Below are positions 18,448-44,348 of a DNA stretch of 64,000 nt, one piece after another. A program made the position numbers and the translations under genes. The stretch lies in the NCBI GenBank assembly GCA_045133915.1, contig JBGUUX010000100.1:69-64068 (forward strand), written 5' to 3'. The notes under the pieces were generated by a model. That model was not told where the DNA came from. It saw only the letters and a program-made list of their open reading frames with translations, and did not search any database. The stretch is from Eubacteriales bacterium (GTDB lineage: Bacteria; Bacillota; Clostridia; Oscillospirales; CAG-272). Within the stretch, counting starts at the first letter, position 1, and each line of letters starts with the position of its first letter.

Positions 18448-18452
18448 ACTGA

Positions 18453-23058: not shown

Positions 23059-23067
23059 ATTTCCTCC

Positions 23068-24988: not shown

Positions 24989-25059
24989 AAGCCTCCCTCC
25001 TTTTTTCATCATAGATATTTTAACGGATTGCCCCCGCGATTTTCTATCCTTGCGAGCAG

Positions 25060-27253: not shown

Positions 27254-27254
27254 T

Positions 27255-27662: not shown

Positions 27663-27673
27663 TCCGCACCGCC

Positions 27674-28981: not shown

Positions 28982-29139
28982 TCATCCTCCTCAATAACTC
29001 TTCTGCCGCATCGAGGGCAGTGATCGTACTCGTACTCATCAATGTTGTTTTCAACGCAGTCGATAACAGCATCACAATAAGGGCAGATTATGAACTTCTT
29101 ATCTTTGTTTTTCTTGGGAATGTATACTGTCCAAGGCAT
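28978..29139 (-). CDS. Small Zn-ribbon protein (53 aa), not in the ORF track
   Basis: ATG at 29139 makes a TAATG overlap with the upstream gene. Translation: [53 protein letters not shown]. Its stop overlaps the next ATG. Confidence 0.5.
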   Translation of the reverse strand: MPWTVYIPKKNKDKKFIICPYCDAVIDCVENNIDEYEYDHCPRCGRRVIEEDE

Positions 29140-29477
29140 TATGTATTCCTCTCTTTTACCAACTTAGCAGACACCTTAACAATGTACTCATCATCATTAA
29201 GCTCTACCACGGTCTCGGTTGACATTGCACCACTGGCAATGATCTGATCGGCAAGAATCCTTGCAAGCTCTAACCTCACATACTCCTTATAGCCAGGGCC
29301 CTTATCGTATCTGTCCTTGTTGACCATCATAGTAGCAGTCACAGGCACCGTTGTGATACTCTCAGCCTTGATTTTGGGAGCTACGGGAGGGAAAACATAT
29401 CCACCCAGCAGCCCTATAAGATTATTCTTCGCCTTTGTCCAAAGGTCTTTGATTTTGATTTTAAGATTAGGTTTCAT
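29139..29477 (-). CDS. Hypothetical protein (112 aa)
   Basis: ORF packed between its neighbours. Confidence 0.55.
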
Positions 29478-29832
29478 CTTTATTCTCCTTTATCACAGTA
29501 AGATCTCCGTACCCCTCTCTGAAAGCGCGGTAATAATATTCGCCTACCTTCTCCGAAAGGCTAATCAGTTTTTTCAGCACCTTTGCGTCTATGTTGAATT
29601 TTAATGTAGAGCGCACTTCACTGGTAATATCAAGCACCACGATCATGCACCCTGCCTCGCCATTCTCGTCGATGTTAGCGGCGGCAAACATGTTACGCTG
29701 CGGGTCGGGATAAAACTCAATCTTTGCAGGGTACTGAGCCGTTTTAATCTCAGCCACAAGGCCCGCCGCACTGCCACAAAACTTACAGAGCTCTTCAAGC
29801 GCTGCCTCGTATTCGATTTTAGCTTTCATCAT
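29467..29832 (-). CDS. Hypothetical protein (~121 aa)
   Basis: The preferred start is [15 protein letters not shown] at 29832, after AAAGGA. Confidence 0.55.
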
Positions 29833-29870
29833 ACGTCCTTTCTGCCGGTTTAACCGTCCCACCGGCAAGG

Positions 29871-30092
29871 CTATGTATCGTATTTACTTATTAGCATCCT
29901 ATACACCTCGCATTTGGTGTAATGCTCACAGCAGAAAACACCTATTTGCGTGTCAAAGTCTGCCTTTTTGTGATAAACGAGGGCCAGGCTGCTGTTGTCC
30001 ACAAGCCCCTCACAGGTAATCCGGCTTTTCCCGTCGTCATACTTGTAGAAGGGACAAGTGACATAAGCCTGCCAGTATGAGCCACTTGGCAT
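29871..30092 (-). CDS. Small Cys-rich hypothetical protein (73 aa)
   Basis: ORF with Cys-containing segments CPFY...CEG...CCEHYTKC. Confidence 0.55.
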
Positions 30093-30106
30093 ATAAGCAC
30101 CCCCTG

Positions 30107-30787
30107 TTATTTGTTGTCAAGTCCGCTATCCTCTCTATACCACTTCAAGATTGTCTCATAGTGATTGGAAACCTTGGCATCATTCTTGATGATAAAAGAG
30201 GACAGTTTATCAACGTAGTAGTCAAAGGTCTCAATGTCGCCAAACTCTTCCAAAAGACTATCTATCTGATCGTTTGACAGAAACACTACGCCCTTACCCA
30301 GCTTTCCACCGACAACTTTCACCTTTCTGTCCGCCGTCGCCGCCGTATCCGACCTTTCGTTTGTAGATGTGGTTGCAGCTGCAGCTGTAGTTGTAGATGG
30401 AGTTATAGTTGTGGATGGAGTTGTTGTTGTAGTTGGATACCATTGGTTATCATTGGTTATCATTGATGACCTTTGATGTTCACTGATAGCAATGGTCTTT
30501 AGCCATTCATCAAAGGTGATCTCCGGTTCTCCCTTCTTTTTGCGTTCCCGACAGACGGTAGCATATTGACGTCTTTGAACAGACAGATTATACTCCGCTT
30601 CATCCTTATCTATCTTCGGTTTTACGAACTCCCAAGCCAGCGACAGCGCCAATCCATCAAACTCCGGTACTGTCCCGCTTTTTCCATACTCCAGCATTGC
30701 CCAGAATAACCGTCCTTTGTCGGCATCCGGCAATTTCTTGAGAGGTCCCATCATATCGAAATATACCATTATTCCGGGTCTTGCCAT
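30107..30787 (-). CDS. Replication-organizer-like protein (DUF6291/DnaD-like N-terminus) with a Thr-rich linker
   Basis: The N-terminus YFDMMGPLKKLPDADKGRLFWAMLEY resembles phage replisome-organizer N-domains (from memory). The internal linker is TTTTTPSTTITPSTTTAAAATTST. Confidence 0.4.
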   Translation of the reverse strand: MARPGIMVYFDMMGPLKKLPDADKGRLFWAMLEYGKSGTVPEFDGLALSLAWEFVKPKIDKDEAEYNLSVQRRQYATVCRERKKKGEPEITFDEWLKTIAISEHQRSSMITNDNQWYPTTTTTPSTTITPSTTTAAAATTSTNERSDTAATADRKVKVVGGKLGKGVVFLSNDQIDSLLEEFGDIETFDYYVDKLSSFIIKNDAKVSNHYETILKWYREDSGLDNK

Positions 30788-30800
30788 GCGTCACACTCCT

Positions 30801-31508
30801 TTACTTCTTACATGCCATAACCTTTATTCCATCCGGCACGCTATTTCTTACGCGGGAAATAAACCGTTCTTCATGGCTCGTTGCGTCCGAAAGGTGTAAA
30901 AGATGTATTTCACGGCATTGTGAGAGGTCCAGTTCTTTCAGATAATCGCACAGGTTGTCTATCTCCATGTGCGCGTTGGTTATACGGTGCCGTACCTTCT
31001 CAGGCAGCTTCTCACAGCGATCAAGTATATCCCTTGAATAGTTGGCCTCAATAGCTAAGATATTCAGCCCGGGAAAGCGATACCGCAGGTTTACCGTATC
31101 TGTAGCAAATGCCAGGATATCACCGTCCGCCCTGCTCTTTATAAGGAAGCCAAGAGGCTCGGCAGCGTCGTGGAATGTAGCAAAGGGAACGATATCAAAG
31201 CTGTCTATGTTAAACTGCTCCATAGAGCTGATAACATTTGTCGCGTCAACTCCCAGCGCGTCGGCAGTCCCCTCACTCATATAGACGCTCAAACCGTCCT
31301 TTATAAGCTCGCTGACACTCTTGGAATGATCCTTGTGCTCATGGCTTATAAGACAACCTGCGAACTCGGTCAGAGAAAAGCCCGAAAGCTTCTGCAGCTT
31401 CTTGTGTGATACCCCGCACTCCAAAAGAATACGGGTATCACTGTCACTCACTATGTATGCGTTTCCATGTGAGGAGGAGGCTAATGCTTCAAATTTCATA
31501 TAGGACAC
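30801..31508 (-). CDS. MBL-fold metallo-hydrolase
   Basis: HGNAYIV...LLECG...LISHEHKDHSKS contains the HxHxDH motif. Confidence 0.8.
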   Translation of the reverse strand: MSYMKFEALASSSHGNAYIVSDSDTRILLECGVSHKKLQKLSGFSLTEFAGCLISHEHKDHSKSVSELIKDGLSVYMSEGTADALGVDATNVISSMEQFNIDSFDIVPFATFHDAAEPLGFLIKSRADGDILAFATDTVNLRYRFPGLNILAIEANYSRDILDRCEKLPEKVRHRITNAHMEIDNLCDYLKELDLSQCREIHLLHLSDATSHEERFISRVRNSVPDGIKVMACKK

Positions 31509-32083
31509 GTCCTTTCCTCTGTTTTAACCTCAACAGTATCGGTAGGCGCATGAAGCTTCTGATACTCTGTAGATTTCTTTATCTGCTCCTGTATCCATTC
31601 AGGCAGCTCCTTAAACACCTCGTCGTCCCACTGCTGCATATCCCACTTGATATGCTTGTTAGTGCTCTCCGGGACCGGGAAGCCCTTGGGCAACGGCATA
31701 AGGTTGTCCACGTTTGCATATTCGCCTGTCTCATTCAGCACAACATTGAGCTGGCAGGGTAAGCCTACCTGATCAAACAGGTCAAGATCAAGAAATTCAT
31801 CATCCGAATACGTCTTAGAGTTCCAGGAAGAGAGAAAAGCTCTCAAATGGCCTTTTTTAGAACCACTTACGGTAAATTCCTTTGAAAGCTGTCTCGGCTC
31901 CTGCTTGCCGTCTACCTCTACAGTCTCGGAGGGGATCTCCCATATAAATTTGACCTTATTGGAATAGCTCTTGAATTTTTCGGAATACTGTTCTCCGAGG
32001 TCGATAACTCCGATACATACAGCAATATATACACCCGGCTCCACAGGCGGGATCTTCGGCTTTGCTCTGTCTTTAACCTTCAT
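31496..32083 (-). CDS. DUF669-like phage protein (possible ssDNA-binding partner of the ATPase)
   Basis: 195 aa, lying between the SMC-like ATPase and the MBL hydrolase as in known phage recombination modules. The family call is from memory. Confidence 0.4.
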   Translation of the reverse strand: MKVKDRAKPKIPPVEPGVYIAVCIGVIDLGEQYSEKFKSYSNKVKFIWEIPSETVEVDGKQEPRQLSKEFTVSGSKKGHLRAFLSSWNSKTYSDDEFLDLDLFDQVGLPCQLNVVLNETGEYANVDNLMPLPKGFPVPESTNKHIKWDMQQWDDEVFKELPEWIQEQIKKSTEYQKLHAPTDTVEVKTEERTCPI

Positions 32084-34010
32084 AACTTACATTCAACTCC
32101 TTATCTTTTTCTGATACGACAAGTCTTATTATCTGACTGTCTGTTTTTTCAAGATCGGTAACACTCTCTGCATTGTCAACAAAAAGCGGAACGCTAACGC
32201 CGTAAGCCTTGGAAAGTGTGTTTATAATGTCTATACCCAGGTTGATTTTCGCGCCGCTGTTCACGCATAAGTAAGGGACATCCTTAAAAACTACGTCGCA
32301 GCGGTCCTCTATACCACCGTTGGCCTGCTCTCTGAAAAGACGGAAACGGGCAATGCGGAAAAGACCGTTTATACTGTCCTCAACAAAGGAAGTCTTGTAT
32401 CGGGTAAACTCTTCCAAAAGGAAAAGCATATTTTCTATCCTCTGCAGCCTCTCTGCCGCTGCCTGTGCTTCTGCCTGCAGATCTGCAATTCTCGTTTGAG
32501 CGTATGCCAGAGCTGATTCCTTACCAACCGTTTCCAAAGCTGTATTGATTTCAGCATTCACCTCGGATATCTTGTCTCGCAGCTCTTTTGAGGCGGTATA
32601 GCTGTCCTCACGCAATACGCGTAGTTCTTCCTGCAGGTGGGATATCAAGCCGCGCAGCCCATCGGCCGTGTCCTTGTATCCTTCCATGTCAACAACTTCG
32701 ACCTTTACACCGTCTGCAGCTTTTATCTGAGCTTCAAGCTCGGCAATCTCCTTGTCATAAGCCTTGATTTCATCCTCGCACAGCTTTAACTGTTCTTCGG
32801 TGGATGCTTTTACCTTCTTAAGCCTGTCAGCCTCGTCCTCTATATCGCGCAGTCTCGCCTGTTTATTCGCCTCAAACTCAGCTTTTATCTTTGCTGCACG
32901 TTCAGCAGGGAAAGCCTGTCCGCAGGTAGGGCAATTGCCGACTGTAAATTCCTCCGCGTTTGCTTTCATCCAACTATCGCGGTATTTTTCAATGCTGATT
33001 TCTATCCTTTCAAGGGAAGCACGATGATTTTCAAGCGTTTTTTGTGTAATCGCCTGCTTGCTCTGCACACCCTGAAGCTTTATTTTTATACCGTTTATAT
33101 CCGGCTGTCCCTGCGTCTGACTTTCACGGTAGAGCCTGTTTTTCGACTCCAGCTCGTTAAGCGCAAGCTGAGCGTTCTTTATTTCCATGTTTTTCGCTTC
33201 AACCGCTGTGTTATGTTCTATGGCAAGCAACTGTGCCGAAAGGTCCTCTTTAAGGGCGGTAAGGCTCTTAACCTCATTCTTCGCGGCCTCAAAGTCGAGG
33301 GCTCCCAGGCTGTCAATAGTTTTCTGACATTCATTTATTCTTGCGGGGATCTCGTCACGCACACCCACACAGCCACGTTTTTCCGAAAGCAGCTTCTTTT
33401 TATAGTCGTCTACACTCAGGCGGCCCATTCCCTCAATGATCGGGGCAAAGTCCTCACGGGTCTCTAAGATCTGCACGTCGCTCTTGGTGCCCGCTACTCT
33501 GAAAAGCACTGCCCTTCTGTCCTGCCAGGGCATTTCTCCGGCAAAGTAGCTTACGCTCGTCAGCATACGGAACAGATCCTCCGAAACAAGCTCGTCCACC
33601 TTTGCGGTAAATGCAAACTTCTTACAGGGGACTTTATCTACGAAATATTCCGATGTATTACCGTCATAAGTTGCCTCCGTACTGCCTCTCTTGGTGCTCC
33701 ATACCTCCTGCAGAGTACGGCGCAGGGATATTATCTCTCCGTTTACGGACAATACAGCTTCAACCTCTGTTATTGCGTCATGATCTTTGACTACTCCCCC
33801 TTTGCCAAGTGGTTTGATTTCGATGTTCTTTTCACCGTTACCGAGGCTGTCCTTAGAAAATAGTAACCAAGTCAATGCGTCAAATACGCTTGTCTTACCG
33901 GTTGCATTGTCGCCGGATATAACAGCATTTCTGCCGTTAAAATCTAATTTAAGGTGCTGGTGACATTTGAAATTCGTCAATTCCAAGCTAATGAGTTTAA
34001 TATCTTTCAT
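32073..34010 (-). CDS. SMC/SbcC/RecF-like AAA ATPase (645 aa)
   Basis: The N-terminal Walker A is ISGDNATGKTSVFDALTWLLF. A long central coiled coil contains a CPTCGQ zinc hook-like motif. A C-terminal ATPase half follows. Confidence 0.8.
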   Translation of the reverse strand: MKDIKLISLELTNFKCHQHLKLDFNGRNAVISGDNATGKTSVFDALTWLLFSKDSLGNGEKNIEIKPLGKGGVVKDHDAITEVEAVLSVNGEIISLRRTLQEVWSTKRGSTEATYDGNTSEYFVDKVPCKKFAFTAKVDELVSEDLFRMLTSVSYFAGEMPWQDRRAVLFRVAGTKSDVQILETREDFAPIIEGMGRLSVDDYKKKLLSEKRGCVGVRDEIPARINECQKTIDSLGALDFEAAKNEVKSLTALKEDLSAQLLAIEHNTAVEAKNMEIKNAQLALNELESKNRLYRESQTQGQPDINGIKIKLQGVQSKQAITQKTLENHRASLERIEISIEKYRDSWMKANAEEFTVGNCPTCGQAFPAERAAKIKAEFEANKQARLRDIEDEADRLKKVKASTEEQLKLCEDEIKAYDKEIAELEAQIKAADGVKVEVVDMEGYKDTADGLRGLISHLQEELRVLREDSYTASKELRDKISEVNAEINTALETVGKESALAYAQTRIADLQAEAQAAAERLQRIENMLFLLEEFTRYKTSFVEDSINGLFRIARFRLFREQANGGIEDRCDVVFKDVPYLCVNSGAKINLGIDIINTLSKAYGVSVPLFVDNAESVTDLEKTDSQIIRLVVSEKDKELNVSYEG

Positions 34011-34521
34011 TTATATTTCTCCTTTTTGATCTGTTATTATTTTGTGTTTTCATATCAACCCATCGGCAATTATCAGGGGAGTACCCCCTGTCGTTATTGA
34101 TTCAATCTATGGTACATTGTCCCATGGGTGCGTTTTTGTCATATCCGTTTGCCATGGCCCACTCGTAGAAAGCGTTAAAATCATTGCGCCATTCTCCGCA
34201 TATCGTAATACCACGCCCACCGTACCTCGGATATTTGGGATTTTTTGGATTGCAACACCGTTGTTTCATATCTTTCCACACTGTATGTAACCGTGTTCCA
34301 CTTTTCCCGTGTACGGTATTGAGTGATATAATATGTTCACGATGTAGACATCCGCAACTTTTTGTTGTACCATTAACCAAGTTACTGCTCGAAACTGAGC
34401 AAACGGAGCCACAATCACATTGACATTTCCACATAGCACGCTTTTGTTTATCACTACCTGCTCGTTTTAACACAACAAGCCTTCCAAAGCGCCGCCCTGT
34501 TAAATCTTTAAGTGGTGCCAT
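33997..34521 (-). pseudogene. Phage DNA-binding/HNH-like protein interrupted by an in-frame TGA
   Basis: From ATG at 34521 the ORF reads MAPLKDLTGRRFGRLVVL...W.C.CDCG...SCGC...YGGRGITICGEW...GQCTID, then TGA (34104-34102). The same frame continues as INNDRGYSPDNCRWVDMKTQNNNRSKRRN to TAA at 33999-33997. The stop sits where the family has Arg (IDRI). Confidence 0.65.
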
Positions 34522-34747
34522 TGTTGTTTTCCCTTTCTGCCAACTCGACTTTTCTCGGGTCAACAATTAATACTGAATTAACGTTGCTTTTGCTTAGAAG
34601 CTCAACCTGAAGTATAGGATGATACCTGCCGTTATACGGGTCTCGTATCATACGGTATATATAAGCTGAAATGCAGGGATAAACCTTGCCCTCAAATACC
34701 ACAGGTTTTCTTTCATCAATGGCCTTGCGTATCTCTTCCGGTTTCAT
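34508..34747 (-). CDS. Hypothetical protein (79 aa)
   Basis: ORF overlapping both neighbours by a few nucleotides. Confidence 0.55.
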   Translation of the reverse strand: MKPEEIRKAIDERKPVVFEGKVYPCISAYIYRMIRDPYNGRYHPILQVELLSKSNVNSVLIVDPRKVELAERENNNGTT

Positions 34748-34965
34748 CGTTTTGACTGTGCCTTTGCTTCCTTAAAGGCATCTACGTAGAATCTCAAAGC
34801 CTTGTATATGCCTCTTGCAATCTCCCACCTCATACTGTATATGGTGAGGTACACCGTTGATATCAGACACAGCCTGATTGCTATGTCCGATGAATCGAGA
34901 CACATAGCCGATATTACCATCACAGCTATGGCGATTGCGTTAATGATTTTTACGACCTTTTTCAT
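34744..34965 (-). CDS. Small membrane protein (73 aa, two hydrophobic helices)
   Basis: The hydrophobic segments are IINAIAIAVMVISAMCL and LCLISTVYLTIY. Confidence 0.5.
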   Translation of the reverse strand: MKKVVKIINAIAIAVMVISAMCLDSSDIAIRLCLISTVYLTIYSMRWEIARGIYKALRFYVDAFKEAKAQSKR

Positions 34966-34967
34966 AG

Positions 34968-35120
34968 TTACTTTGCTTGCAGAAGCCTTGCAGCCGACTT
35001 TGCTATGGCTTCAAGCCTCCGCTTCCTTTCTTCTTCAGTAAGCACCGGGATATATACCCTCGCTACCATATTTTCTGTTTTGATTATTATGGGTTCCTTG
35101 TAGGTATCATTGTTTGCCAT
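34968..35120 (-). CDS. Small hypothetical protein (50 aa), not in the ORF track
   Basis: GGAGG, 5 nt, ATG at 35120. Translation: MANNDTYKEPIIIKTENMVARVYIPVLTEEERKRRLEAIAKSAARLLQAK. Confidence 0.45.
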   Translation of the reverse strand: MANNDTYKEPIIIKTENMVARVYIPVLTEEERKRRLEAIAKSAARLLQAK

Positions 35121-35230
35121 ATGAACCTCCGAATTAATTACTTAATCCATAATATTCAGGACTGCTTGTCCCTGTCCCATCCGGACAACATATAGTTTTG
35201 AATTCGCTAAGTTGCGAAATCACGACTTTT

Positions 35231-35434
35231 TCAGTAAAAAAAATAATCGAGATCCAGCGGAATAGACAAGCCAAGAAGAGCACAAGCCTTTTCAATTTGT
35301 GGCATTGTCCACGGACTTCTTTCGTTTAGCTTGGCACTAATAGTAGACTTATCCATTTCCATTGCTACAGCGAATTTATCGAGAGAACCAAAAATCTCTC
35401 TTATCTTTTCACGTAATCTTCCAAAGGTTTTCAA
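35231..35434 (-). CDS. Cro-like HTH regulator (67 aa)
   Basis: The HTH is FAVAMEMDKSTISAKLN. The gene is divergent from the cI-like gene and is the first gene of the leftward operon. Confidence 0.7.
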   Translation of the reverse strand: MKTFGRLREKIREIFGSLDKFAVAMEMDKSTISAKLNERSPWTMPQIEKACALLGLSIPLDLDYFFY

Positions 35435-35484
35435 TTTTCGACACCTCCTTTCTCTGAGGTTGGGATTTCACGACCTTGATTTTG

Positions 35485-35512: not shown

Positions 35513-35564
35513 TCCCCTTTTGCAAAAAAATCACGACTTTTTTTGTAAAACTCCGTCGAAAGTC

Positions 35565-35593
35565 TTGAAATCCCGTTTGTTTTATGGTATTAT
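35565..35593 (+). promoter_or_regulatory. Rightward promoter for the cI-like repressor
   Basis: TTGAAA (35565-35570), a 17-nt spacer ending in TGG, then TATTAT (35588-35593). Confidence 0.65.
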
Positions 35594-35616
35594 AAGTAAA
35601 CAAGGAGGTGATGAAA

Positions 35617-36120
35617 GTGAAGATACGGGATAAGGTGCAAAGGGTTACTTCTACTAAGGACAGATTAAAAGAAGCAATGCTTCGAGCAAATAAGAAGCAA
35701 ATAGACATTTCGAGAGAAACCGGTATTGCTAAAGGTACTATAAGTAATTATCTTTATGGTAAATATGAGCCAAAGCCGGAAGCCGTTGCAAAACTCGCAG
35801 AATCCCTTAATGTTAGTGATATGTGGCTCATGGGTTACGACGTTCCAATGAAAAGGAGTAAAAATCTTACCAATTATGAGGAAAATCCCCACGAGTTAGA
35901 ATTACATGACTATTTTGAGACGCTTGAAACAAAAGAACAAAAAGAAATAGTCGAATATGTGAAAGCTGTATCAAACGGCGATAAAAAAGCGATCTCCCCC
36001 GAAAATTTAATACTTACCGAAGGAGAGCAGATACTTATAGACTTATTCAGGCGTGTCCCCGAAGAACAGCAACAGCTTGTTCTTCAGATGATTCGAGCTG
36101 CTTTAGGAAGCCAACAATGA
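35617..36120 (+). CDS. cI-like XRE-family repressor
   Basis: The HTH is QIDISRETGIAKGTISNYLYGK. The ORF opens at 35608. The GTG at 35617 has the best spacing (8 nt) from AGGAGG (35603-35608). The C-terminus is LIDLFRRVPEEQQQLVLQMIRAAL. Confidence 0.8.
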   Translation: MKIRDKVQRVTSTKDRLKEAMLRANKKQIDISRETGIAKGTISNYLYGKYEPKPEAVAKLAESLNVSDMWLMGYDVPMKRSKNLTNYEENPHELELHDYFETLETKEQKEIVEYVKAVSNGDKKAISPENLILTEGEQILIDLFRRVPEEQQQLVLQMIRAALGSQQ

Positions 36121-36243: not shown

Positions 36244-36375
36244 TTTTCGCGTTTTCATTCTACCGTGCCATCTGTCCGATAAAACGGACTTAAAACAATC
36301 GGTGTGATTTCAGTTTATTATATCGATTTCAAATTGTCAAAAAAATTTCAACAATCTTTAGGTATTGTGATATTT

Positions 36376-36720
36376 ATGATGCAACAAACATTAATAGAAT
36401 GGCTCAATAAAAATGTTGATGCCGGAAGCGCCCTTGTATATAGTCTGATAGCATTTTTTGCATGGTTTATATTCTGGAAACTGCTTTTAGGTAGGGCATT
36501 TGAAAAATGCAATTATAATTCTTTTGGATATGCACTGTTTGAATTGGGCGCAGGTGGAACATTTTTGGTGATAATTTTTATATTATTTATCACTGTTTTA
36601 TTTGTAACCTCATTCCAGGCAGTATTTGCATACGGATTAAAAATGATATTTACGCTTTCATTATTTTGGGGAATAATAATTGCATTTGCTATTTTTCTTA
36701 TACGGCATATAAAAAAATAA
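36376..36720 (+). CDS. Prophage-encoded membrane protein (about 114 aa, 3-4 TM helices) between repressor and integrase
   Basis: The ORF opens at 36304 (GTG); ATG at 36376 is preferred. The hydrophobic segments are ALVYSLIAFFAWFIFWKLLL, GAGGTFLVIIFILFITVLFV and LSLFWGIIIAFAIFLI. Confidence 0.6.
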   Translation: MMQQTLIEWLNKNVDAGSALVYSLIAFFAWFIFWKLLLGRAFEKCNYNSFGYALFELGAGGTFLVIIFILFITVLFVTSFQAVFAYGLKMIFTLSLFWGIIIAFAIFLIRHIKK

Positions 36721-36732: not shown

Positions 36733-38400
36733 ATGTATAATCCATACGAACAACTAAATTTTAGTCCCGATGAGATCCTCGTATATCTGAGGAAATCGAG
36801 AACTGACGATCCGTTGATGACGGTTGAGGAAGTCCTTGCAAAGCACGAGACCATCCTCAATGAATGGGGAGAGAGAAATCTGTCAGCTCCCATCCCCGAA
36901 GAGCAAAAATACAGAGAGGTTGTATCGGGTGAAACCATAGCAGACCGCCCGGAAATACAAAAGCTCCTCAGACTTATTGAATCTCCCAAGATAAAAGCGA
37001 TCCTCACCGTAGAGGTACAGAGGCTCTCAAGAGGAGACCTTGAGGATGCAGGCAGACTTATAAAGCTGCTTCGCTACACCAACACCCTTGTCATCACTCC
37101 GCAGAAAATATACGATCTCCGTGACGAGTATGACCGAGACTCCTTTGAGCGAGAACTTAAGAGAGGCAACGAGTTCCTCGAATATCAGAAGAAAATAATG
37201 AACCGAGGCAGACTTCTCTCTGTATCGCAAGGCAATTATATAGGCTCTGTACCGCCTTTCGGATATGATAAGGTATTTGTAACCGAAGGTAAAAGAAAAT
37301 GCCCCATACTCGTTATAAACGAGTCAGAGGCACAAGCAGTACGGATGATATTCGATATGTACGTCAATCAGGACATGGGCAGAGTAAACATAGCACACCG
37401 TCTGAACGATTTAGGCATCAAACCACGAAAAGCAAAACTGTGGGGACAAGATGGCATCAAGAAAATTCTTGAGAACCAACACTATACAGGCAAGGTTATT
37501 TGGGATTTCAGAAAAACCGTCACCGTAATCGAGGAAGGCGAGGTATTAAAAACGAGACCGGTTGCCAAGATGGGAGAATATCTTATTTACAACGGAAAGC
37601 ACGAAGCTATTATCTCCGAGGAGCTATTCAACAAGGCAAGGGAGAAGAAAGGCAGAAACCACAGAGCCAAGCCAACCACCAAGGTCAGAAACCCCTTCGC
37701 AAGCCTGCTGTACTGTCAGTGCGGCAGAGCGATGTCATTAAGGACCTACAAGAAAGAAGGTAAACTGCCAAGGCTGATGTGCGATGATCAAGTACATTGT
37801 CATACAGGCTCCTGCACCTATGAGGAGTTTGAGACAATGATAATCAACATATTAAAGCAGTGCATAGAGGACTTTGAAATTCGGATAAAGAATGACAACG
37901 GTGACTCAATAAAAATGCACGAGAAGCTGCTGAAAACCCTTGAGAAGAAAATACAGGACCTTGAAGCCAAGGAACTGTCACAATGGGAGCAGCAGTCTCA
38001 CCCCGACCCTGCACAGAGGATGCCTCCCGAAATCTTCAAGAGGCTGAACGAAAAGCTCCTGAAGGAAAAGGACGAGGTCAAGGAAGCGATGTGCAATGCC
38101 CGGAAGTCAATGCCTGAACGCATCGACTATCAGGAGAAGCTCTACAAATTTCAAGAAGCCTTGGATGCCCTGCAAGATCCCGACAGACCTGCAGCAGAAA
38201 AGAACAGACTTCTCAAAGACTGCATCGAAAGAATTGACTATAACCGAGAAGCACCCGAATTAATAAAGAACCCCGAAAAGAAAACCTATAAGAACGGCAG
38301 AGAGGACGGCAAAGGCAGAAGGCTTAAACCCAACCCTCTGAAATCAGGTGCCACTTGGACCAAGCCACCTATAGAACTTGATGTGAAACTGAAGGTGTAA
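36733..38400 (+). CDS. Large serine recombinase (prophage integrase, 555 aa)
   Basis: The N-terminal resolvase-type catalytic domain reads VYLRKSRTDD...VSGETIADRPEIQKLL...VQRLSRGD. It is followed by a recombinase domain, a Zn-ribbon (CQCG...C.DQVHCHTGSC) and a C-terminal coiled coil. Confidence 0.9.
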   Translation: MYNPYEQLNFSPDEILVYLRKSRTDDPLMTVEEVLAKHETILNEWGERNLSAPIPEEQKYREVVSGETIADRPEIQKLLRLIESPKIKAILTVEVQRLSRGDLEDAGRLIKLLRYTNTLVITPQKIYDLRDEYDRDSFERELKRGNEFLEYQKKIMNRGRLLSVSQGNYIGSVPPFGYDKVFVTEGKRKCPILVINESEAQAVRMIFDMYVNQDMGRVNIAHRLNDLGIKPRKAKLWGQDGIKKILENQHYTGKVIWDFRKTVTVIEEGEVLKTRPVAKMGEYLIYNGKHEAIISEELFNKAREKKGRNHRAKPTTKVRNPFASLLYCQCGRAMSLRTYKKEGKLPRLMCDDQVHCHTGSCTYEEFETMIINILKQCIEDFEIRIKNDNGDSIKMHEKLLKTLEKKIQDLEAKELSQWEQQSHPDPAQRMPPEIFKRLNEKLLKEKDEVKEAMCNARKSMPERIDYQEKLYKFQEALDALQDPDRPAAEKNRLLKDCIERIDYNREAPELIKNPEKKTYKNGREDGKGRRLKPNPLKSGATWTKPPIELDVKLKV

Positions 38401-38404
38401 TTTT

Positions 38405-38438
38405 TTTGCACCTATCAGTTCCATCAATAGTGTGCGTA
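38405..38438. other. Prophage-host junction (attR/attL) with an imperfect dyad
   Basis: GCACCTAT (38408-38415), N11, ATAGTGTGC (38427-38435). It lies between the integrase stop (38400) and the last cotJC-homologous codons (GCA CAC at 38435-38430). Confidence 0.5.
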
Positions 38439-38633
38439 TTCTTCGGTAGCAATATCCCGAAGGAGATTTGCTACCCTGTTGTCAGACATGGCGTAGCTCT
38501 GAGAAAAATATCGAAGGGATGCACCAAGCTCGCCGTCGGGACCGCCGTACTGACTGGAAATGACCTTAGCGGCTCTTGCATCGGGGGTCTTGATGTTCAC
38601 GGGGAACTGTAATCTCTTTTCATACTCCCACAT
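38424..38633 (-). pseudogene. cotJC: 5' fragment of cotJC (Mn-catalase-family spore coat protein), truncated by the prophage
   Basis: MWEYEKRLQFPVNIKTPDARAAKVISSQYGGPDGELGASLRYFSQSYAMSDNRVANLLRDIATEEYAHY, then stop. This matches the N-terminus of CotJC up to TEE(F/Y)AH. Full-length proteins are about 190 aa. Confidence 0.8.
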
Positions 38634-38887
38634 CAGTTCATTCCTCCTTTCCAGGCGCTGTTGTTTACCCAGCGCCAACAGTCGGTGTCCTCGGCGTCAT
38701 ATCCGCCTAAGGGGGAGATCTCCTCGTTGTGACGGCAGACTAACTCCTTGCGCTTTGCGGCATATTCGTTAAAAAGAGCCTTTGCCTCGGCGCAGTCGGG
38801 GTGTGTGTCTATAAAGAGTCTCAGCTCATCCATACAGAAGCTGACACATTGCAGTTCTCTCATTATCTCGTCTCTCATCGGCGGCAT
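38633..38887 (-). CDS. cotJB: Spore coat protein CotJB
   Basis: ELQCVSFCMDELRLFIDTHPDCAEAKALFNEY matches the CotJB signature (L.LYLDTHP). Confidence 0.8.
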   Translation of the reverse strand: MPPMRDEIMRELQCVSFCMDELRLFIDTHPDCAEAKALFNEYAAKRKELVCRHNEEISPLGGYDAEDTDCWRWVNNSAWKGGMN

Positions 38888-39102
38888 CCTCCCATACAGT
38901 AAGGCTTGTTAAGGTCGGCAAAGAGCGTTCCCTTATCTAACGCCTCGCAGCATCTGTAGACGTTTTTATACTCCTGTACCGGAACATACGCCATAGCAAG
39001 AGACACGGGCTGTGAAGTACAAACACAGTACTCGGCATCCTCCCGTGGCATAGGTCTGGGACAGGGACGGACTCTCGGGGTATATCTGTTGTATCTATCC
39101 AT
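38875..39102 (-). CDS. cotJA: Spore coat-associated protein CotJA
   Basis: LAMAYVPVQEYKNVY...ALDKGTLFADLNKPY matches the CotJA signature. Confidence 0.75.
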   Translation of the reverse strand: MDRYNRYTPRVRPCPRPMPREDAEYCVCTSQPVSLAMAYVPVQEYKNVYRCCEALDKGTLFADLNKPYCMGGCRR

Positions 39103-39159
39103 TATTTCTCTCCGTGATTTATTGCAGCCGCGGCTGCTAATATCAGTATATGAGATCGG

Positions 39160-39189
39160 TTGACATAGGTGAAAACGATGTGGTATAAT
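39160..39189 (+). promoter_or_regulatory. Promoter of the fic-mod-res operon
   Basis: TTGACA (39160-39165), an 18-nt spacer ending in TGG, then TATAAT (39184-39189). Confidence 0.6.
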
Positions 39190-39229: not shown

Positions 39230-39835
39230 ATGGCACTTGAAAATAAACTTGGTATCACAAGCTCTCCGGAGCTTGCGGAAGCAGAGGAACGTATCAGCAA
39301 GAAAAAGGCAGCAGAGCTGTTTGAAAACGGCTTACTTGACAGATCAGAGGCCGGTACGTTTGCGTCGCTGAAGGCCATTCATAAATACCTATTTGAGGAT
39401 ATTTACGACTTTGCGGGTGAGCTTCGCACCGTGAATATTGCCAAGGGTAATTTTCGCTTTGCGCCCTTAATGTATATTGAAGCGGCACTTGCCAATATCG
39501 ACAAGATGCCTCAGTCCACCTTTGACGAGATCGTGGAAAAGTACGTGGAAATGAACATCGCCCATCCCTTCCGCGAGGGTAACGGCAGAAGTATGCGCAT
39601 CTGGCTGGATTGCATATTTAAAAAGGAGATCGGCAAGGTGGTCGATTGGAGCAAGGTGGATAAAGAGGACTATCTGCTTGCAATGGAACGCAGTCCTATT
39701 AAGGATATCGAGATTAAGCATATCCTGAAAAACGCCCTGACTGACGATATCCATAGCCGCGAAGTTTATATGAAGGGTATCGACCACAGCTACTACTACG
39801 AGGGTTATACGACTTTCAAAACGGAAGAGTTGTAA
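39230..39835 (+). CDS. fic: Fic-family protein (AMPylase type), class III with a C-terminal inhibitory helix
   Basis: The active-site motif is HPFREGNGRSMR. The C-terminal SYYYEG fits the (S/T)xxxE(G/N) auto-inhibition motif. Start context: GGAGG, 7 nt, ATG. Confidence 0.85.
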   Translation: MALENKLGITSSPELAEAEERISKKKAAELFENGLLDRSEAGTFASLKAIHKYLFEDIYDFAGELRTVNIAKGNFRFAPLMYIEAALANIDKMPQSTFDEIVEKYVEMNIAHPFREGNGRSMRIWLDCIFKKEIGKVVDWSKVDKEDYLLAMERSPIKDIEIKHILKNALTDDIHSREVYMKGIDHSYYYEGYTTFKTEEL

Positions 39836-39849
39836 AGGAGTTATAAGTT

Positions 39850-41748
39850 ATGAATTTTTTTGATGCTGTTGTAACCGTCTTAAAACAAGACGAAAGATTT
39901 TTTACTGCAGAGGACGAATTGCTCCGCAATTCCGTCTATGAAGCTGCTATGAAAATGGACGCCGACCTCTTGAAGATGCTCTATAATAATGAAGTTACCA
40001 GAGAACGCTTCTTTAACGACATTGACGGCATTTCCGTTTTTGATAAAGTCGGTTTCGGCTGGGTAATCAATAATCGGGAGTTTCTGCCGGACTCATACAC
40101 TCGCTATAAGAATAAAATCGGTCTGACGAACAGCAACGGAGATTATATATCTACATCGAACGATGTTGAACTCGTTTTCCCGTACAAAGATTGTGTCCTT
40201 GAGGGCGGTCAGACAAAGGAAGACCAGAAGCGCAGCGAAATCTTCTATAATGAAACACTTGCTCCCGATGAAGTGGATAGACTTCTTTATCCAAAAGTGC
40301 TAACGAACGCCAAAAGATATACGGCTGATGGCATTACCATAGCCGACAGTATATCCAATGCAGATAATTTGATTATCAAAGGCAACAACTTATTATCTAT
40401 TGCTTCTCTGTTACGCTCTTTCGAACATCGCATTTCGTGCATTTGTATCGACCCACCTTATAACACAACGGGTAGTGGCTTTGAATACAACGATAGTTTC
40501 AATCATTCAACGTGGCTTACTTTTATGAAAACACGTTTGGAGATTTCGCAAAAATTACTTGCTACCAATGGCACAATCTTCATTTTCTGTGATGATTGCG
40601 AACAAGCATATTTGCGTGTTCTTATGGACGACATTTTTGGCAGAGATAAATATATTCAGACAGTTGTATGGAGAAATTGCGACAATAGCAATAATGATGC
40701 GAAACAATTTTCACAAGACCACAATTACATCTTGGTTTATTCAAATAATCCGAATTGGGAAAGTCTGAAACTCGATAGAACCGAGGGACAAGCCAAACAT
40801 TACAAAAATCCCAACAACGACCCTCGTGGTCCGTGGTTTGATGGAAACCCCGTAAATTCTCCCAATCCGCGTGAAAATCTTAAATATACGCTTGTTGCAC
40901 CAAACGGGAATATTATTCAACCGCCTGCTAATGGTTGGAGATGGGATAAAAAAGAAATGCAAAGACGAATGGAAACAGGCGAAATTCGTTTCAACGAGCA
41001 GAATACCAATATTATCAGACGCACATACTTGTTGGAGCAGAAAGGACTTCCGCCTTCAAGTTTGTGGGATATTTGTGAAGAAGATGCTCAATGGTTGGAT
41101 ATTAAAGAAACGGGACATACCAGACAGGCGAAATATGAGCAAAAGAAGTTGTTCCCTGGAATGCCTACAAGTGAATTGTTCAAAACGCCTAAACCCGAAA
41201 GAGTAATACAAAAGATACTTCAAATTGCCACCATAGAAAATGATGTTGTTTTGGATTTCTTTGGTGGAAGTGGAACTACGGCAGCCGTTGCGCACAAAAT
41301 GGGGCGGCAATATATTCTTTGCGAACAAATGGATTATATTAAAGACTTCATTATCGAACGCATAAAAAAGGTTATCGATGGTGAAAAAGGCGGTATTTCC
41401 GTTGAGCAAAAGTGGAATGGCGGAGGATCTTTTGTCTATTGCGAACTTGCCAGCTTAAACCAAAAGTATGTCGATGATATTCAGACGGCTACAACCGATG
41501 CCGACATTGTTACCATCTGGCACGAAATGCTGAAAACGGGCTTCATCAGCTGCAAGGTCAATCCGAAAGATATTGATATGGAAGATGTTGCCTTTACGGA
41601 ATTATCTCTTGACGACAAAAAGCGTTTCCTTATGGAACTGCTCGACAAGAACCAGTTGTATGTAAATTATTGCGATATGGAAGATGAAACTTTTGCCGTG
41701 TCCGAAGCAGACAAGGCATTTACAAAGAGTTTCTATGGGGAGATGTAA
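39850..41748 (+). CDS. mod: Type III restriction-modification methyltransferase (Mod, beta-class N6/N4)
   Basis: Motif IV CIDPPYNT comes before motif I FFGGSGTTAAVA, the beta-class order. Confidence 0.85.
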   Translation: MNFFDAVVTVLKQDERFFTAEDELLRNSVYEAAMKMDADLLKMLYNNEVTRERFFNDIDGISVFDKVGFGWVINNREFLPDSYTRYKNKIGLTNSNGDYISTSNDVELVFPYKDCVLEGGQTKEDQKRSEIFYNETLAPDEVDRLLYPKVLTNAKRYTADGITIADSISNADNLIIKGNNLLSIASLLRSFEHRISCICIDPPYNTTGSGFEYNDSFNHSTWLTFMKTRLEISQKLLATNGTIFIFCDDCEQAYLRVLMDDIFGRDKYIQTVVWRNCDNSNNDAKQFSQDHNYILVYSNNPNWESLKLDRTEGQAKHYKNPNNDPRGPWFDGNPVNSPNPRENLKYTLVAPNGNIIQPPANGWRWDKKEMQRRMETGEIRFNEQNTNIIRRTYLLEQKGLPPSSLWDICEEDAQWLDIKETGHTRQAKYEQKKLFPGMPTSELFKTPKPERVIQKILQIATIENDVVLDFFGGSGTTAAVAHKMGRQYILCEQMDYIKDFIIERIKKVIDGEKGGISVEQKWNGGGSFVYCELASLNQKYVDDIQTATTDADIVTIWHEMLKTGFISCKVNPKDIDMEDVAFTELSLDDKKRFLMELLDKNQLYVNYCDMEDETFAVSEADKAFTKSFYGEM

Positions 41749-41750
41749 TT

Positions 41751-44348
41751 ATGCCGTTCCTTTATGAACAACTTGATACATTGCGTAATTTCGGCAGTTA
41801 CACCGAAATACCACCGTACATACAAGAAAATATAAGTCCGCGCTTTGAGTTAAGACCGTATCAGATAGGCGCGTTTGAAAACTTCATAACCTACTTTGAA
41901 AACGAAAAGATGTGTCACAAGCCGACGCAAACGCTGTTCCACATGGCAACAGGTTCGGGTAAAACGATGATAATGGCAGGGCTGATGCTGTACCTCTATA
42001 AAAAGGGGTATCGCAACTTTCTGTTCTTCGTAAATCTCTCGAACATCGTCAATAAGACGAGGGACAACTTCTTGAACGCGCTTTCAAGTAAGTACCTTTT
42101 CGCTGACGAAGTACGTTTATCCGGGGAGCGCGTGCCGATAAAGGAAGTTACTAACTTCCAATACGCAGACGAGAACGCAATCAACATCTGCTTCACTACT
42201 ACGCAAGGGCTTCACTCTGATATGTGGTCGGCAAAGGAAAACGCCATATCCTATGAAGATTTTGAGGGTAAAAAGGTCGTTCTTATCTCCGATGAAGCGC
42301 ATCATCTGAACGTAGATACAAAGACGCTTGAGAAAAACAAGGACGAGCTGGCTAATTATCACAGTTGGGAATATACGGTTCGCCGCATCTTTGAAACGAA
42401 CAAGGAAAATGTGCTGTTAGAATTCACGGCTACTTGTGACATTCATAATCCGCAGATACGTGCTGAATATGAAAGTAAAATCGTTTATGACTATCCGCTT
42501 TCCAAGTTCAGAGCAGACGGCTACTCGAAAGAGATTAAGACGCTGCGCTCCGATGTGACGATTATGGAAAGAGCAATTCAAGCGATAATGTTAAGTCAGT
42601 ACCGTTTGAAAGTGTTTCAAGATAAACGCTTGTCAGTAAAGCCCGTTGTGTTGTTCAAGGCTGCCAAAATTGCAGACAGTAACGAGTTTATGGAAGCGTT
42701 TATTGATACGATTAGCAATTTGACGGGTAACGAACTGCGTAGAATCTCCGAACTGACGGATAACGAAACGCTGGGTGAAGCATACGCATACTTTGAAAAG
42801 AACGGTATCAGCTTCGACCAGTTGGCACAAGAATTGCGCGAAGATTTTTCGGCAGAACATTGTATCTCGGCGAACGATGATAAAGAAGCAGCAGCGAAGC
42901 AGATAGCGTTAAACTCTCTGGAAGATGCTTCAAATCCGTACCGTGCCGTGTTCGAGGTCAAGAAGTTGGACGAGGGCTGGGATGTTCTCAATCTGTTTGA
43001 TATTGTCCGTTTGTACGAAACGCGACAGTCTGGCGGTAAGAAGATTTCCCCTGCAACCGTTTCAGAAGCGCAGTTAATAGGTCGTGGCGCACGTTATTGT
43101 CCGTTCCAGATTGATGATGAACAGGAGAAGTACAAGAGAAAGTACGATACGGACATTGATAATCCGCTTCGTATCTGTGAAGAACTGTATTACCATTGTC
43201 AGAACGACAGCCGTTATATTGGCGAACTTAATAACGCGTTGCGTGAAATTGGTGTTGATATTGAGAACCAGACTGTCCGCACCTATGTACTGAAAGACAG
43301 TTTCAAGTCTGATGCTCTCTACCGTGAGGGACTTGTCTTTACAAATGACCGAGTAGAGAAAAGCAGAAAAGATGTTGATGGGCTGCTCCCGTCCGTCCGC
43401 GAACACATTTACACAGTTAAGCTCGCAACGGGCAGTTCTGGCGAAGATACGCTTTTCGGTGTTGGCAACGCATTAACAGAAAGACAGACAGCAACCTACG
43501 TTTATCGTACTTCCATCGGCGAAATTGCCGAAATGAATTATGCAATCGTTCATAAGGCGTTGTGTAAATATAATGTTCTCAAGTTTAACACCTTGAAAAG
43601 TTACTTCCCGAACCTTAAATCAACAAGGGAGTTTATAACGAGTGAGAACTATATGGGCGGTATCAAGGTCGAAATTACATCGAAGTATGAAAAGCCTGCG
43701 CCGTACATTCTTTTCACCGCTTGCGCGAACGTACTTGAAAAAGTGGCTGCGTCTGTATCTGCTATCGAAGTGACCTATGAGGGTACAACCGAGTTTAAAC
43801 CTAAACGCATCTACGAAATGTTCAAGGACAAGAAATGTAACTACACCATTCTGCATGACGGCGGCGTTGGTTACTCTCAAAACGATATGACCGTTCCGAG
43901 CAGTTGGAAAATCGACTTGTCAAAAGAAGATTGGTTTGCGTTTGAAGATAACTTTGGTACAAGCGAAGAAAAGGCATTTGTCGCTTACTTCAAAGGATTC
44001 GTACCGATGTTAAAAGCAAAGTATGATAAGGTGTTCCTTGTTAGAAATGAACGCCAACTTCACATCTATTCTTTTGACGGTGGAGAACGCTTTGAACCCG
44101 ACTATCTGTTATTCTTGCATAAGAATAATAGCGACGGTTACGAGCAACTGCAAGTGTTCATCGAACCGAAAGGTACACACCTTGTCGAAAACGATAAATG
44201 GAAAGAAGACTTCCTACTTGAAATTGAAGACAAGGCGATTGCAACGAAAATCTTTGTTGATGATAATAAGTACAGAATCTGGGGATTCCACTTTTTCAAC
44301 ACCGATGTTCGTATGAGCGATTTTGCAGAAGATATGAGCAGATTATAA
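41751..44348 (+). CDS. res: Type III restriction enzyme Res subunit (DEAH helicase-nuclease)
   Basis: Motifs MATGSGKTMIMAG and LISDEAHHLN. 865 aa. Starts 3 nt after the mod stop. Confidence 0.85.
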   Translation: MPFLYEQLDTLRNFGSYTEIPPYIQENISPRFELRPYQIGAFENFITYFENEKMCHKPTQTLFHMATGSGKTMIMAGLMLYLYKKGYRNFLFFVNLSNIVNKTRDNFLNALSSKYLFADEVRLSGERVPIKEVTNFQYADENAINICFTTTQGLHSDMWSAKENAISYEDFEGKKVVLISDEAHHLNVDTKTLEKNKDELANYHSWEYTVRRIFETNKENVLLEFTATCDIHNPQIRAEYESKIVYDYPLSKFRADGYSKEIKTLRSDVTIMERAIQAIMLSQYRLKVFQDKRLSVKPVVLFKAAKIADSNEFMEAFIDTISNLTGNELRRISELTDNETLGEAYAYFEKNGISFDQLAQELREDFSAEHCISANDDKEAAAKQIALNSLEDASNPYRAVFEVKKLDEGWDVLNLFDIVRLYETRQSGGKKISPATVSEAQLIGRGARYCPFQIDDEQEKYKRKYDTDIDNPLRICEELYYHCQNDSRYIGELNNALREIGVDIENQTVRTYVLKDSFKSDALYREGLVFTNDRVEKSRKDVDGLLPSVREHIYTVKLATGSSGEDTLFGVGNALTERQTATYVYRTSIGEIAEMNYAIVHKALCKYNVLKFNTLKSYFPNLKSTREFITSENYMGGIKVEITSKYEKPAPYILFTACANVLEKVAASVSAIEVTYEGTTEFKPKRIYEMFKDKKCNYTILHDGGVGYSQNDMTVPSSWKIDLSKEDWFAFEDNFGTSEEKAFVAYFKGFVPMLKAKYDKVFLVRNERQLHIYSFDGGERFEPDYLLFLHKNNSDGYEQLQVFIEPKGTHLVENDKWKEDFLLEIEDKAIATKIFVDDNKYRIWGFHFFNTDVRMSDFAEDMSRL

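Follow-up and report, generated by a model that had tools for sequence, protein, structure and literature searches.

Does the spore-coat gene cotJC of this clostridial genome end naturally after some 69 codons, or has it been split by a temperate phage that could later release it intact? The question is raised by a stretch of 64,000 nucleotides (nt) from an Eubacteriales bacterium (contig JBGUUX010000100.1 of assembly GCA_045133915.1), called the window below, which represents nearly all of its 64,425-nt source contig. An earlier note on this DNA had described intact cotJA and cotJB genes on the minus strand, a cotJC cut after about 69 residues, a 555-amino-acid (aa) large serine recombinase (LSR, the integrase) close to the break and more than 38 kb of phage genes beyond it, and had likened the arrangement to the elements skin in sigK and SPbeta in spsM. 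Profile searches and comparison with related loci (labelled L185, L175 and so on) bear out this description, and the structural likeness is strongly supported by the comparison of the attachment sites attR and attP, by intact relatives of the gene and by junctions found on both cotJC halves. The locus is very probably explained by a temperate tailed phage of about 43.6 kb, which was integrated by its LSR at codon E66 of cotJC and whose excision would restore the gene. At the level of sequence, the insertion, the position of the crossover, the site specificity across the LSR clade and the phage nature of the element are established.

The cotJC open reading frame (ORF) starts with an ATG that overlaps the cotJB stop codon by one base and encodes 69 aa before the TGA at 38424-38426. 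It covers positions 1-69 of the 284 positions of the Pfam Mn_catalase profile (3e-20) and is 54 % identical to residues 1-67 of B. subtilis CotJC. The closest database relatives (82 % identical) continue ...TDIGTEELAHLEMIGAIV..., that is ...TEELAHLEMIG.... As the full-length relatives read through this point and are 187-195 aa long, the 69-codon frame is a truncation and not a natural end. The window holds a fragment in place of a full-length CotJC of about 190 aa with all metal-binding motifs, and a tblastn search found no match to the C-terminal part of CotJC anywhere within the window. A naturally short CotJC or a chimeric assembly, in favour of which stands only the draft state of the source contig, is effectively refuted. 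L175, an independent contig from another sample, carries the same junction (91.5 % nt identity, with the integrase 96 % and the cotJC fragment 91 % identical), which rules out an assembly artefact, and the break lies at the centre of a conserved att dyad.

The integrase has the domain order of an LSR. A resolvase catalytic domain (Pfam Resolvase, residues 16-135, 4.8e-9), in which YLRKSR at residues 18-23 contains the presumed catalytic serine, is followed by a recombinase domain (Recombinase, 198-306, 2.8e-20) and a putative zinc-ribbon/coiled-coil region (Zn_ribbon_recom at 3.3e-4, below the curated cut-off). Its stop codon lies 23 nt from the cotJC TGA. Homologues are abundant (7115 at E<=1e-50). 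Identity does not fall below 70 % among the best 120, most of which are located on contigs of 42-46 kb that resemble complete phage genomes. An integrase search of viral contigs gave 23 loci with proteins 53-75 % identical.

The crossover can be located by comparison with L185 and L186, two free phage genomes of 43.6 kb whose integrase is 90 % identical and which are collinear with the window at 84-95 % nt identity. Their attP reads GCACCTATCAGTTCCATCAATGGTGTGCGTATTC/GTCTGCTCACAAATGATGGAT, and the window at the same junction (marked by the slash) reads GCACCTATCAGTTCCATCAATAGTGTGCGTATTC/TTCGGTAGCAATATCCCGAAGG. The sequences agree up to ...GTGTGCGTATTC, after which the free phages continue with GTCTGCTCACAAATGATGGAT and the window with TTCGGTAGCAATATCCCG, the reverse complement of cotJC (...GAT ATT GCT ACC GAA GA). 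The shared sequence ends at base 38441. Because identity to the free attP ends there, the crossover is assigned to positions 38440-38441, where the window reads TC and the coding strand of cotJC has the GA of codon E66. This dinucleotide sits exactly at the centre of the att dyad. In most relatives attP lies directly 3' of the integrase gene as a dyad of about 50 bp, TTCCATCA-N13-(TC or GA)-N13-TGATGGAA; 14 of the 19 free attP sites downstream of family LSRs have this 8-13-2-13-8 arrangement, with TC at the centre in 11 and GA in 3. The attR of the window joins the P half of such an imperfectly palindromic, integrase-proximal site to a host half at the central dinucleotide, and the attP of this prophage would have the layout TTCCATCA-N13-TC-N13-TGATGGAA. 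Its P arm differs from that of the free phage genome by one base over the 34 nt from GCACCTAT to the TC core.

These comparisons correct the earlier placing of the break at the TGA. The host-derived part of the fragment runs from 38633 down to 38440 and consists of codons 1-65 and the GA of E66. The remainder begins with the third base of E66, at 38439, and ends at 38424; it is phage DNA and encodes Y-A-H-Y-stop, an ending that imitates the host ...LAH.... The conserved arm TGATGGAA opens with this TGA. Codon E66 belongs to a conserved TEE[LF]AH motif, which we take to be metal-binding. The imperfect dyad GCACCTAT-N11-ATAGTGTGC (38408-38435), which the earlier note had proposed to span the break, does exist but lies wholly in the phage half and is also present in the L185 attP. 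The accompanying proposal that the integrase-proximal sequence is an att site holds good, with the conserved dyad centred on 38440-38441 and a nearly identical P arm in free L185.

By the layout of L185, attL would lie about 5 kb beyond the end of the contig; the genes for tail and lysis would likewise fall outside it, and so would the 3' part of cotJC. The far-end proteins of L185 (endolysin, tail protein) are too poorly conserved to serve as probes for this end. Exact look-ups of the LSR, the giant ORF and the cotJC fragment in a contig index gave no match. A pattern for the phage arm joined to ELAHLE[MI], TCCAWCA-N13-GAR YTN GSN CAY YTN GAR AT, was used; among the loci already in the comparison set it matched true junctions only. 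It was found in 97 metagenome contigs and in 36 species-representative genomes, which include Lachnospiraceae, Oscillospiraceae, Roseburia, Marvinbryantia, Coprococcus, Ruminococcus and Faecousia as well as the isolates Muricoprocola aceti and Paenibacillus caseinilyticus. About 15 of these genomes have a family integrase (42-63 % identity) immediately upstream of the cotJC 3' part, which is the orientation opposite to that of the window. L012, L058 and numerous loci from genomes and metagenomes show the same order, an LSR and then ...GA/R-CTN-GCN-CAY (ELAH...). About 20 genomes have the cotJC 3' part next to phage DNA and no integrase nearby, as is expected of the far-end junction in the window orientation, and far-end junctions onto the 3' part are also present in the viral loci L044 and L054. 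The layout of the window itself (LSR, attR, reversed cotJC 5' part, cotJB) recurs in L175, L176, L006/L115, L109 and L124, with cotJA also visible in L006 and L176. Both junction types are thus known for the LSR clade, on separate contigs of relatives. The cotJC 3' half is expected at the other end of this prophage, and the predicted attL, on the sense strand of cotJC, should be close to ATCCATCATTTGTGAGCAGAC-GA-R CTN GCN CAY YTN GAR ATG. Intersecting the names of the viral contigs with a 3' part (61) and of those with a 5' part (the best 80 of 245) gave no site-2 pair, and this absence of paired halves is probably due to trimmed prophage predictions.

Insertion into cotJC is widespread. The 69-aa fragment was compared with its 120 best matches: 38 of them read on into CotJC, being either intact or ended by the contig, and the other 82 depart from the consensus inside codons 61-68, with many distinct junction classes. 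Scans of viral contigs gave 245 with a cotJC 5' part, of which the best 80 were inspected, and 61 with a 3' part, nearly always where a prophage ends. A second hot spot near codon 28 (GGPDGE/GGPDGEL) is used by an LSR family 26 % identical to that of the window, the LSR gene lying just upstream of the remaining cotJC (viral contigs L024, L042, L050, L061-L069, L140-L173). Further insertions are located near codons 119-122 (L078, L085, L086, L089, L090) and codon 135 (L088, L093, L116), and possibly after ...RFGEA near codon 178 (L012, L211). In four loci (L141, L171, L172, L189) a middle piece of cotJC, codons ~28-65 or ~66-137, lies between two different LSR elements. An extra, reversed serine recombinase gene is found 1-2 kb downstream of the cotJC 3' part in several hosts (L012/L040, L042, L060 and L071); it is homologous to a partial recombinase at L211 3-460 and may belong to another element whose target is the gene after cotJC or the 3' extremity of cotJC itself. 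In L284 and L303 the family integrases are frameshifted or fragmented and the cotJC 3' parts fall into two alignment pieces.

The insertion of the window lies inside the coding sequence of a sporulation gene, at codon 66. Both cotJC halves flanking an element in the same orientation on a single contig were seen in one locus, L277 (metagenome contig OBLI01001429.1, 3400-8060), where the recombinase is of a different LSR family. From cotJA and cotJB the order there runs through the cotJC 5' part and an element of 3.4 kb to the cotJC 3' part. The mini-element, also present in L276, encodes a serine recombinase of 458 aa and, as cargo, a hybrid histidine kinase of 684 aa, and its crossover falls within GGTA (codons G63/T64), eight bases upstream of the site used in the window. 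In L211 (Lachnospiraceae metagenome-assembled genome (MAG) JAIECJ010000021.1, 1-5300) the halves are 3.3 kb apart and inverted: arm-GA-3' part (+), 1.4 kb, a family LSR (+), arm-TC-5' part (-), cotJB and cotJA, the two arms being nearly identical. Inversion between the arms, and not excision, would rebuild cotJC here and create attP. L211 could represent a real integrase-driven flip or a misassembled MAG. L280 was considered as a mini-element of the LSR clade of the window and rejected, as its LSR is not followed by a P arm.

The closest named phage is Roseburia phage Jekyll (LR596902.1; loci L322/L323/L324), whose integrase is 43 % identical. The Jekyll record ends with ...ATCCAACATATCTGAACCGATGAATT and begins with GAATTGGGATGGAGATGTTGGAT, and the joined ends form an 8-13-GA-13-8 site. 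Its terminal sequence is identical to that of a metagenome junction, L279, which runs into the cotJC 3' part (ELAH...). As its end matches this cotJC junction, Jekyll would appear to reside in the same cotJC codon of R. intestinalis. A homologue of a 50-aa protein of the window, discussed below, is encoded at 39001-39177 (VUE37419.1) and is preceded by AAGACAACCAGTACAGCATTAAC. Jekyll shares with the prophage of the window the LSR clade, the att layout, the 50-aa homologue and, apparently, the cotJC codon. It differs in being a siphovirus, in its Lachnospiraceae host, in its opposite orientation (integrase beside the cotJC 3' part) and in being experimentally active: it can be induced with mitomycin and sheds virions constitutively (10.1101/575076). 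Its description does not mention cotJC, spores or catalase (10.1101/575076).

The genes left of the crossover, listed in the table together with the host genes, are those of an integrated temperate member of Caudoviricetes, in which terminase, portal, major capsid protein and a lysogeny switch are all present. One third of the phage genome is occupied by a single giant ORF, the homologues of which have the same place in L185 (4767 aa) and L187 (4591 aa). In L185 the region of about 5 kb between attP and the giant gene contains an endolysin, small membrane proteins, a holin-like protein and a BppU_N tail protein; the start of the tail gene beside the giant ORF in the window differs from that in L185. 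The lysogeny switch consists of two divergent operons. A perfect TTGACA-16-TATAAT promoter (35512-35485) precedes the Cro-like gene, and a TTGAAA-17-TATTAT promoter (35565-35593) precedes the cI-like repressor gene, which opens the lysogeny operon that ends with the LSR. At the place of the hydrophobic protein just upstream of the LSR, L175 and L176 have genes of 112-114 aa. Repeats resembling AAAGTCGTGA occur at 35216-35232, 35470-35480, 35525-35540 and 34955-34970, that is, around the divergent promoters, between the Cro-like and 50-aa genes and beyond the latter, and probably serve as repressor operators. L187 (ENA contig NODE_16_length_92854) is 92.9 kb long and has the free-phage order of LSR, attP, lysis and tail genes. 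At about twice the size of its relatives of ~46 kb, it is probably a head-to-tail dimer produced in the assembly of a circular or concatemeric genome.

Table. Features of the window discussed in the text (positions in the window; Pfam and PHROG are the family databases searched).
Feature	Position	Strand	Basis or remark
Prophage, right-hand ~38.4 kb of ~43.6-kb genome	1-38441		Phage genes; collinear with L185 (alignment ends at 38444)
DarB-like antirestriction protein, giant (4739 aa), with regions of SNF2 helicase and methyltransferase type	603-14822	-	phrog_10089 E=0; Pfam SNF2-rel_dom, ResIII, Helicase_C
Head and packaging module	15933-25012	-	Pfam and PHROG
Internal virion protein	15933-17705	-	Pfam/PHROG
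Major head protein	18453-19541	-	Pfam/PHROG
Prp protease	20777-21130	-	Pfam/PHROG
P22-like portal	21130-23058	-	Pfam/PHROG
Large terminase	23068-24567	-	Pfam/PHROG
Small terminase	24524-25012	-	Pfam/PHROG
Early, replication and recombination genes	25473-34566	-	PHROG
DNA methyltransferase	25473-26342	-	PHROG
Metallo-hydrolase	30801-31508	-	PHROG
SbcC/SMC-like protein	32073-34010	-	PHROG
HNH endonuclease	34102-34566	-	PHROG
50-aa ORF, candidate recombination directionality factor	34968-35120	-	Co-occurrence with LSR clade
Degenerate copy of GGACAA-N-CATAnnnT motif, GGGACAGGGACAAGCAGTCCTGAATATT	35151-35178	-	Upstream of 50-aa gene
Cro-like small helix-turn-helix (HTH) protein (DUF739), first gene of leftward early operon	35231-35434	-	Pfam DUF739 7e-10
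cI-like repressor (HTH_3), first gene of lysogeny operon	35608-36120	+	Pfam HTH_3 8e-11; PHROG transcriptional repressor families
138-aa hydrophobic protein	36304-36720	+	ORF; no family match (Pfam, PHROG)
LSR (integrase), 555 aa	36733-38400	+	Pfam Resolvase and Recombinase
attR	38419-38462		P half TTCCATCA (38419-38426) + 13 nt; TC 38440-38441; host half 13 nt + TCCCGAAG
cotJC 5' fragment	38424-38633	-	Mn_catalase profile match; comparison with relatives and L185
cotJB	38633-38887	-	Intact; Pfam CotJB 4e-20
cotJA	38875-39102	-	Intact; Pfam CotJA 9e-17
Likely cotJ operon promoter	39145-39173	-	TTCACC-N15-CATATACT, -10 element CATAnnnT, sigmaE/sigmaK-type

On the host side, the cotJA upstream regions of other loci likewise contain (T)CACC-N15-CATAnnnT. 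The assignment of this promoter to sigmaE/sigmaK is our assumption, made from what is known of B. subtilis, where the cotJ coat operon is expressed in the mother cell. Beyond cotJA, at 39230-44348 on the plus strand, a Fic-domain gene (39230-39835, checked against Pfam) is followed by a type III restriction-modification-like pair, a 632-aa methylase-like and an 865-aa helicase-like ORF called by ORF sequence. These genes may form a small defence island adjoining the integration site; ordinary chromosomal genes follow further to the right.

A course of integration and excision can be proposed as follows. The LSR would have recombined attP with the host attB inside cotJC, the strands being exchanged at the GA of E66. 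The cotJC of the lysogen would then encode only residues 1-66 followed by four phage-encoded residues. The integrase, as the product of the final gene of a cI-type lysogeny operon, is probably made constitutively. By itself it would not recombine attL with attR; excision would need a recombination directionality factor (RDF), probably the 50-aa product. Serine integrases cut and rejoin DNA at a 2-bp core without loss of sequence, and because no bases are lost in this exchange, excision would rebuild cotJC exactly and in frame. Excision upon induction of the prophage is near certain; the steps that we infer are the presence of the cotJC 3' half at the other end, the identity of the RDF and the timing of excision.

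The candidate RDF is encoded by the second gene of the early leftward operon. A homologue lies within 8 kb upstream of the LSR in 18 of 19 loci with an LSR identity of at least 53 % and in 32 of 38 with at least 42 %, compared with none of 10 loci of other LSR clades (<=32 % identity). The small L211 element and phage Jekyll each encode a homologue as well. The 50-aa protein is probably the RDF of the clade, as judged from this distribution. A motif, ACA-N10/11-CATA, is located 16-35 nt upstream of the start of the 50-aa gene in 19 of 35 dereplicated loci, as against 2.7 % of windows taken at random and 2.6 % of 1404 windows that lie upstream of ORFs in these loci. Its typical form is rGGACAAgc-N7-gCATAnnnT, in which CATAnnnT is the -10 element of sigmaE/sigmaK promoters; GGACAAG presumably resembles the SpoIIID box known from B. 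subtilis. The copy in the window is degenerate, with GAATA at the -10 position where L185 has CATA. The strict B. subtilis-type sigmaE pattern is absent upstream of the 50-aa gene in every locus examined, the window included. A sigmaK-type pattern, AC-N16-18-CATAnnnT, is found in 11 of 32 loci and in 2.7 % of control windows, and the window does not match it. The spacing between ACA and CATA (11-12 nt) is shorter than the sigmaK gap, which is 14-16 nt between the -35 and -10 blocks (PMC517825). In C. difficile, the SpoIIID consensus is KRTAACARK, and the RDF CD1234 depends on sigmaE and SpoIIID (PMC5025042). The motif is a lead towards mother-cell control but no proof of it, and it could be the signal of another factor or a phage-specific one.

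Several points weigh against the explanation of the locus by a phage that is integrated at E66 and restores cotJC on leaving. The contig stops before the other end of this prophage is reached, and the other contig of the source assembly is not among the 36 species-genome matches to the 3'-junction pattern. The attB of the exact host is reconstructed from relatives. The RDF role of the 50-aa protein is assigned by co-occurrence, a pattern that shared phage ancestry could also produce, and the protein matches no known family (no Pfam or PHROG match even at E=0.5). Some related loci (L222, L229, L271, L304) contain frameshifted LSRs and broken cotJC 3' parts. Loci of this kind, L284 and L303 among them, point to lineages in which element and gene alike have decayed, or else to errors in the sequencing of contigs with low coverage. 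Not every cotJC insertion stays reversible. It is improbable, however, that the prophage of the window is itself defective and its cotJC permanently dead. Its left end is outside the contig and the tail gene beside the giant ORF differs from that of L185, but all inspected genes are open, including those for the LSR, repressor, terminase, portal and capsid, and the near identity of the P arm and the collinearity with the free phage L185 speak for an intact element.

The timing of excision allows two readings. There is an even chance that the lysogeny is plainly disruptive: cotJC would be a convenient, conserved and dispensable site, spores would be made without this CotJC or with a paralogue, and the phage would leave on ordinary induction only. 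LSR phages commonly pick conserved coding sequences, and the use of at least four or five positions in cotJC by unrelated LSR clades fits targeting driven by conservation. The candidate RDF lies inside the repressor-controlled early operon, the inducible Jekyll sheds virions constitutively, and some loci hold decayed LSRs and cotJC fragments. According to PMC12122855, the gross properties of B. subtilis spores do not require CotJC, and its plain loss may be tolerated. What is left unexplained is the conserved CATAnnnT motif before the 50-aa gene, and all well-studied phages and elements inside mother-cell genes have proved to excise during sporulation (PMC4191935, PMC5025042, PMC5595907).

It is possible instead, with a probability somewhat short of even, that the prophage is a programmed intervening element, excised in the sporulating mother cell by an RDF under the control of sigmaE/sigmaK and perhaps SpoIIID, with the forespore keeping the prophage. 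cotJC would then be whole again by the time the coat is assembled, and lysogeny would be tied to coat maturation. Such a reading would extend the explanation by integration at E66 and does not exclude it. The target belongs to a coat operon with a CATAnnnT -10 promoter that is mother-cell expressed in B. subtilis, the candidate RDF follows the LSR clade, and the motif preceding it is far more frequent than in the controls. The integrase is part of a constitutive lysogeny operon, as CD1231 is in C. difficile (PMC5025042), and precedents exist in Clostridia with skinCd (PMC5025042) and the yin element in yabG (PMC10747680). The argument is one of analogy together with the candidate RDF motif, which in the window has GAATA and which is short for sigmaK, and the existence of double insertions and decayed copies also counts against it. 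The dN/dS of the cotJC 5' fragment between the window and L175 is 0.08, a value that is uninformative on selection after insertion because divergence is greater between the hosts (dS 0.72) than between the prophages (dS 0.26). Programmed excision is no likelier than the simplest rival, in which a coat gene that can be dispensed with is disrupted and this is tolerated.

Known systems help to place the integrated phage. SPbeta in spsM of B. subtilis (SprA, SprB; PMC4191935, PMC5499854) is, like the element of the window, a full-size temperate phage with an LSR at its edge that splits a mother-cell spore-envelope gene, and its integrase is expressed in the lysogen with a small separate protein setting the direction (PMC4191935, PMC5499854). 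It differs in host class (the window is from Clostridia), target gene, att sequences and phage type, and the LSRs are only distantly related. Moreover, its sporulation-specific excision and the sigmaE/K control of sprB have been demonstrated experimentally. The skin elements in sigK (SpoIVCA in B. subtilis; CD1231 and the RDF CD1234 in C. difficile; PMC5025042) are likewise LSR-bounded insertions in a mother-cell gene. The C. difficile skin combines a constitutive recombinase with a small orphan RDF that needs sigmaE and SpoIIID (PMC5025042), and the operon and motif of the window suggest the same. Skin elements, however, are degenerate prophage remnants in the gene of an essential sporulation sigma factor, whereas the element of the window looks intact, has relatives present as free genomes in metagenomes and targets a non-essential coat protein. 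The yin element in yabG of Clostridium botulinum (PMC10747680) is also a clostridial serine-recombinase prophage in a coat-related mother-cell gene, for which an RDF and a sigmaK promoter have been proposed in silico (PMC10747680). Its gene and recombinase are different, its excised circles have been detected, and it is known from one strain only, in contrast to the widespread clade that targets cotJC.

The earlier note had left aside whether cotJC-targeting elements were already on record, and they are, in passing. cotJC is named as a frequent integration target by Kohm et al. 2021 (10.1101/2021.11.22.469490), with reference to Abe et al. 2013, and Galperin et al. 2022 (10.1101/2022.02.25.481979) list a skin-like element in cotJC of Laceyella sacchari. 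These listings share the target gene and the kind of element; the passages concerned are one-line mentions from Bacilli, in which att sites, phage family, distribution and mechanism are not given. Phage phi027 of C. difficile was rejected as a precedent, being located beside a cotJC-like gene and not inside it (PMC12122855).

Taken singly, the locus is ordinary: one more serine-integrase prophage in a sporulation gene, at a target already listed by others. Its interest lies in breadth, as many temperate phages of gut Lachnospiraceae and Oscillospiraceae use this cotJC codon. The att architecture is now defined to the base, and with Jekyll of Roseburia intestinalis a cultured, inducible member of the clade is available, apparently at the same site. 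Coupling of prophage excision to sporulation in gut commensals, as in B. subtilis and C. difficile, thereby becomes directly testable, and the attP/attB pairs defined here could be put to use in Clostridia as orthogonal integrase tools. A broader proposal, which we regard as doubtful in its entirety, is that cotJC is a general phage landing pad in gut Clostridia, entered at no fewer than four or five codons, all within conserved catalase motifs, by several LSR lineages in both orientations, and that the largest lineage, to which the prophage of the window and Jekyll belong, has a dedicated 50-aa RDF under a mother-cell-type (sigmaE/K and SpoIIID-like) promoter. If this were true, the phages would depart from the chromosome of the mother cell in the course of sporulation, making the coat gene whole, and would still be inherited through the spore. 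In some genomes, such as L211, the same integrase may flip a segment instead of excising it. Phage carriage and spore formation would then be linked widely among the commensals of the human gut.

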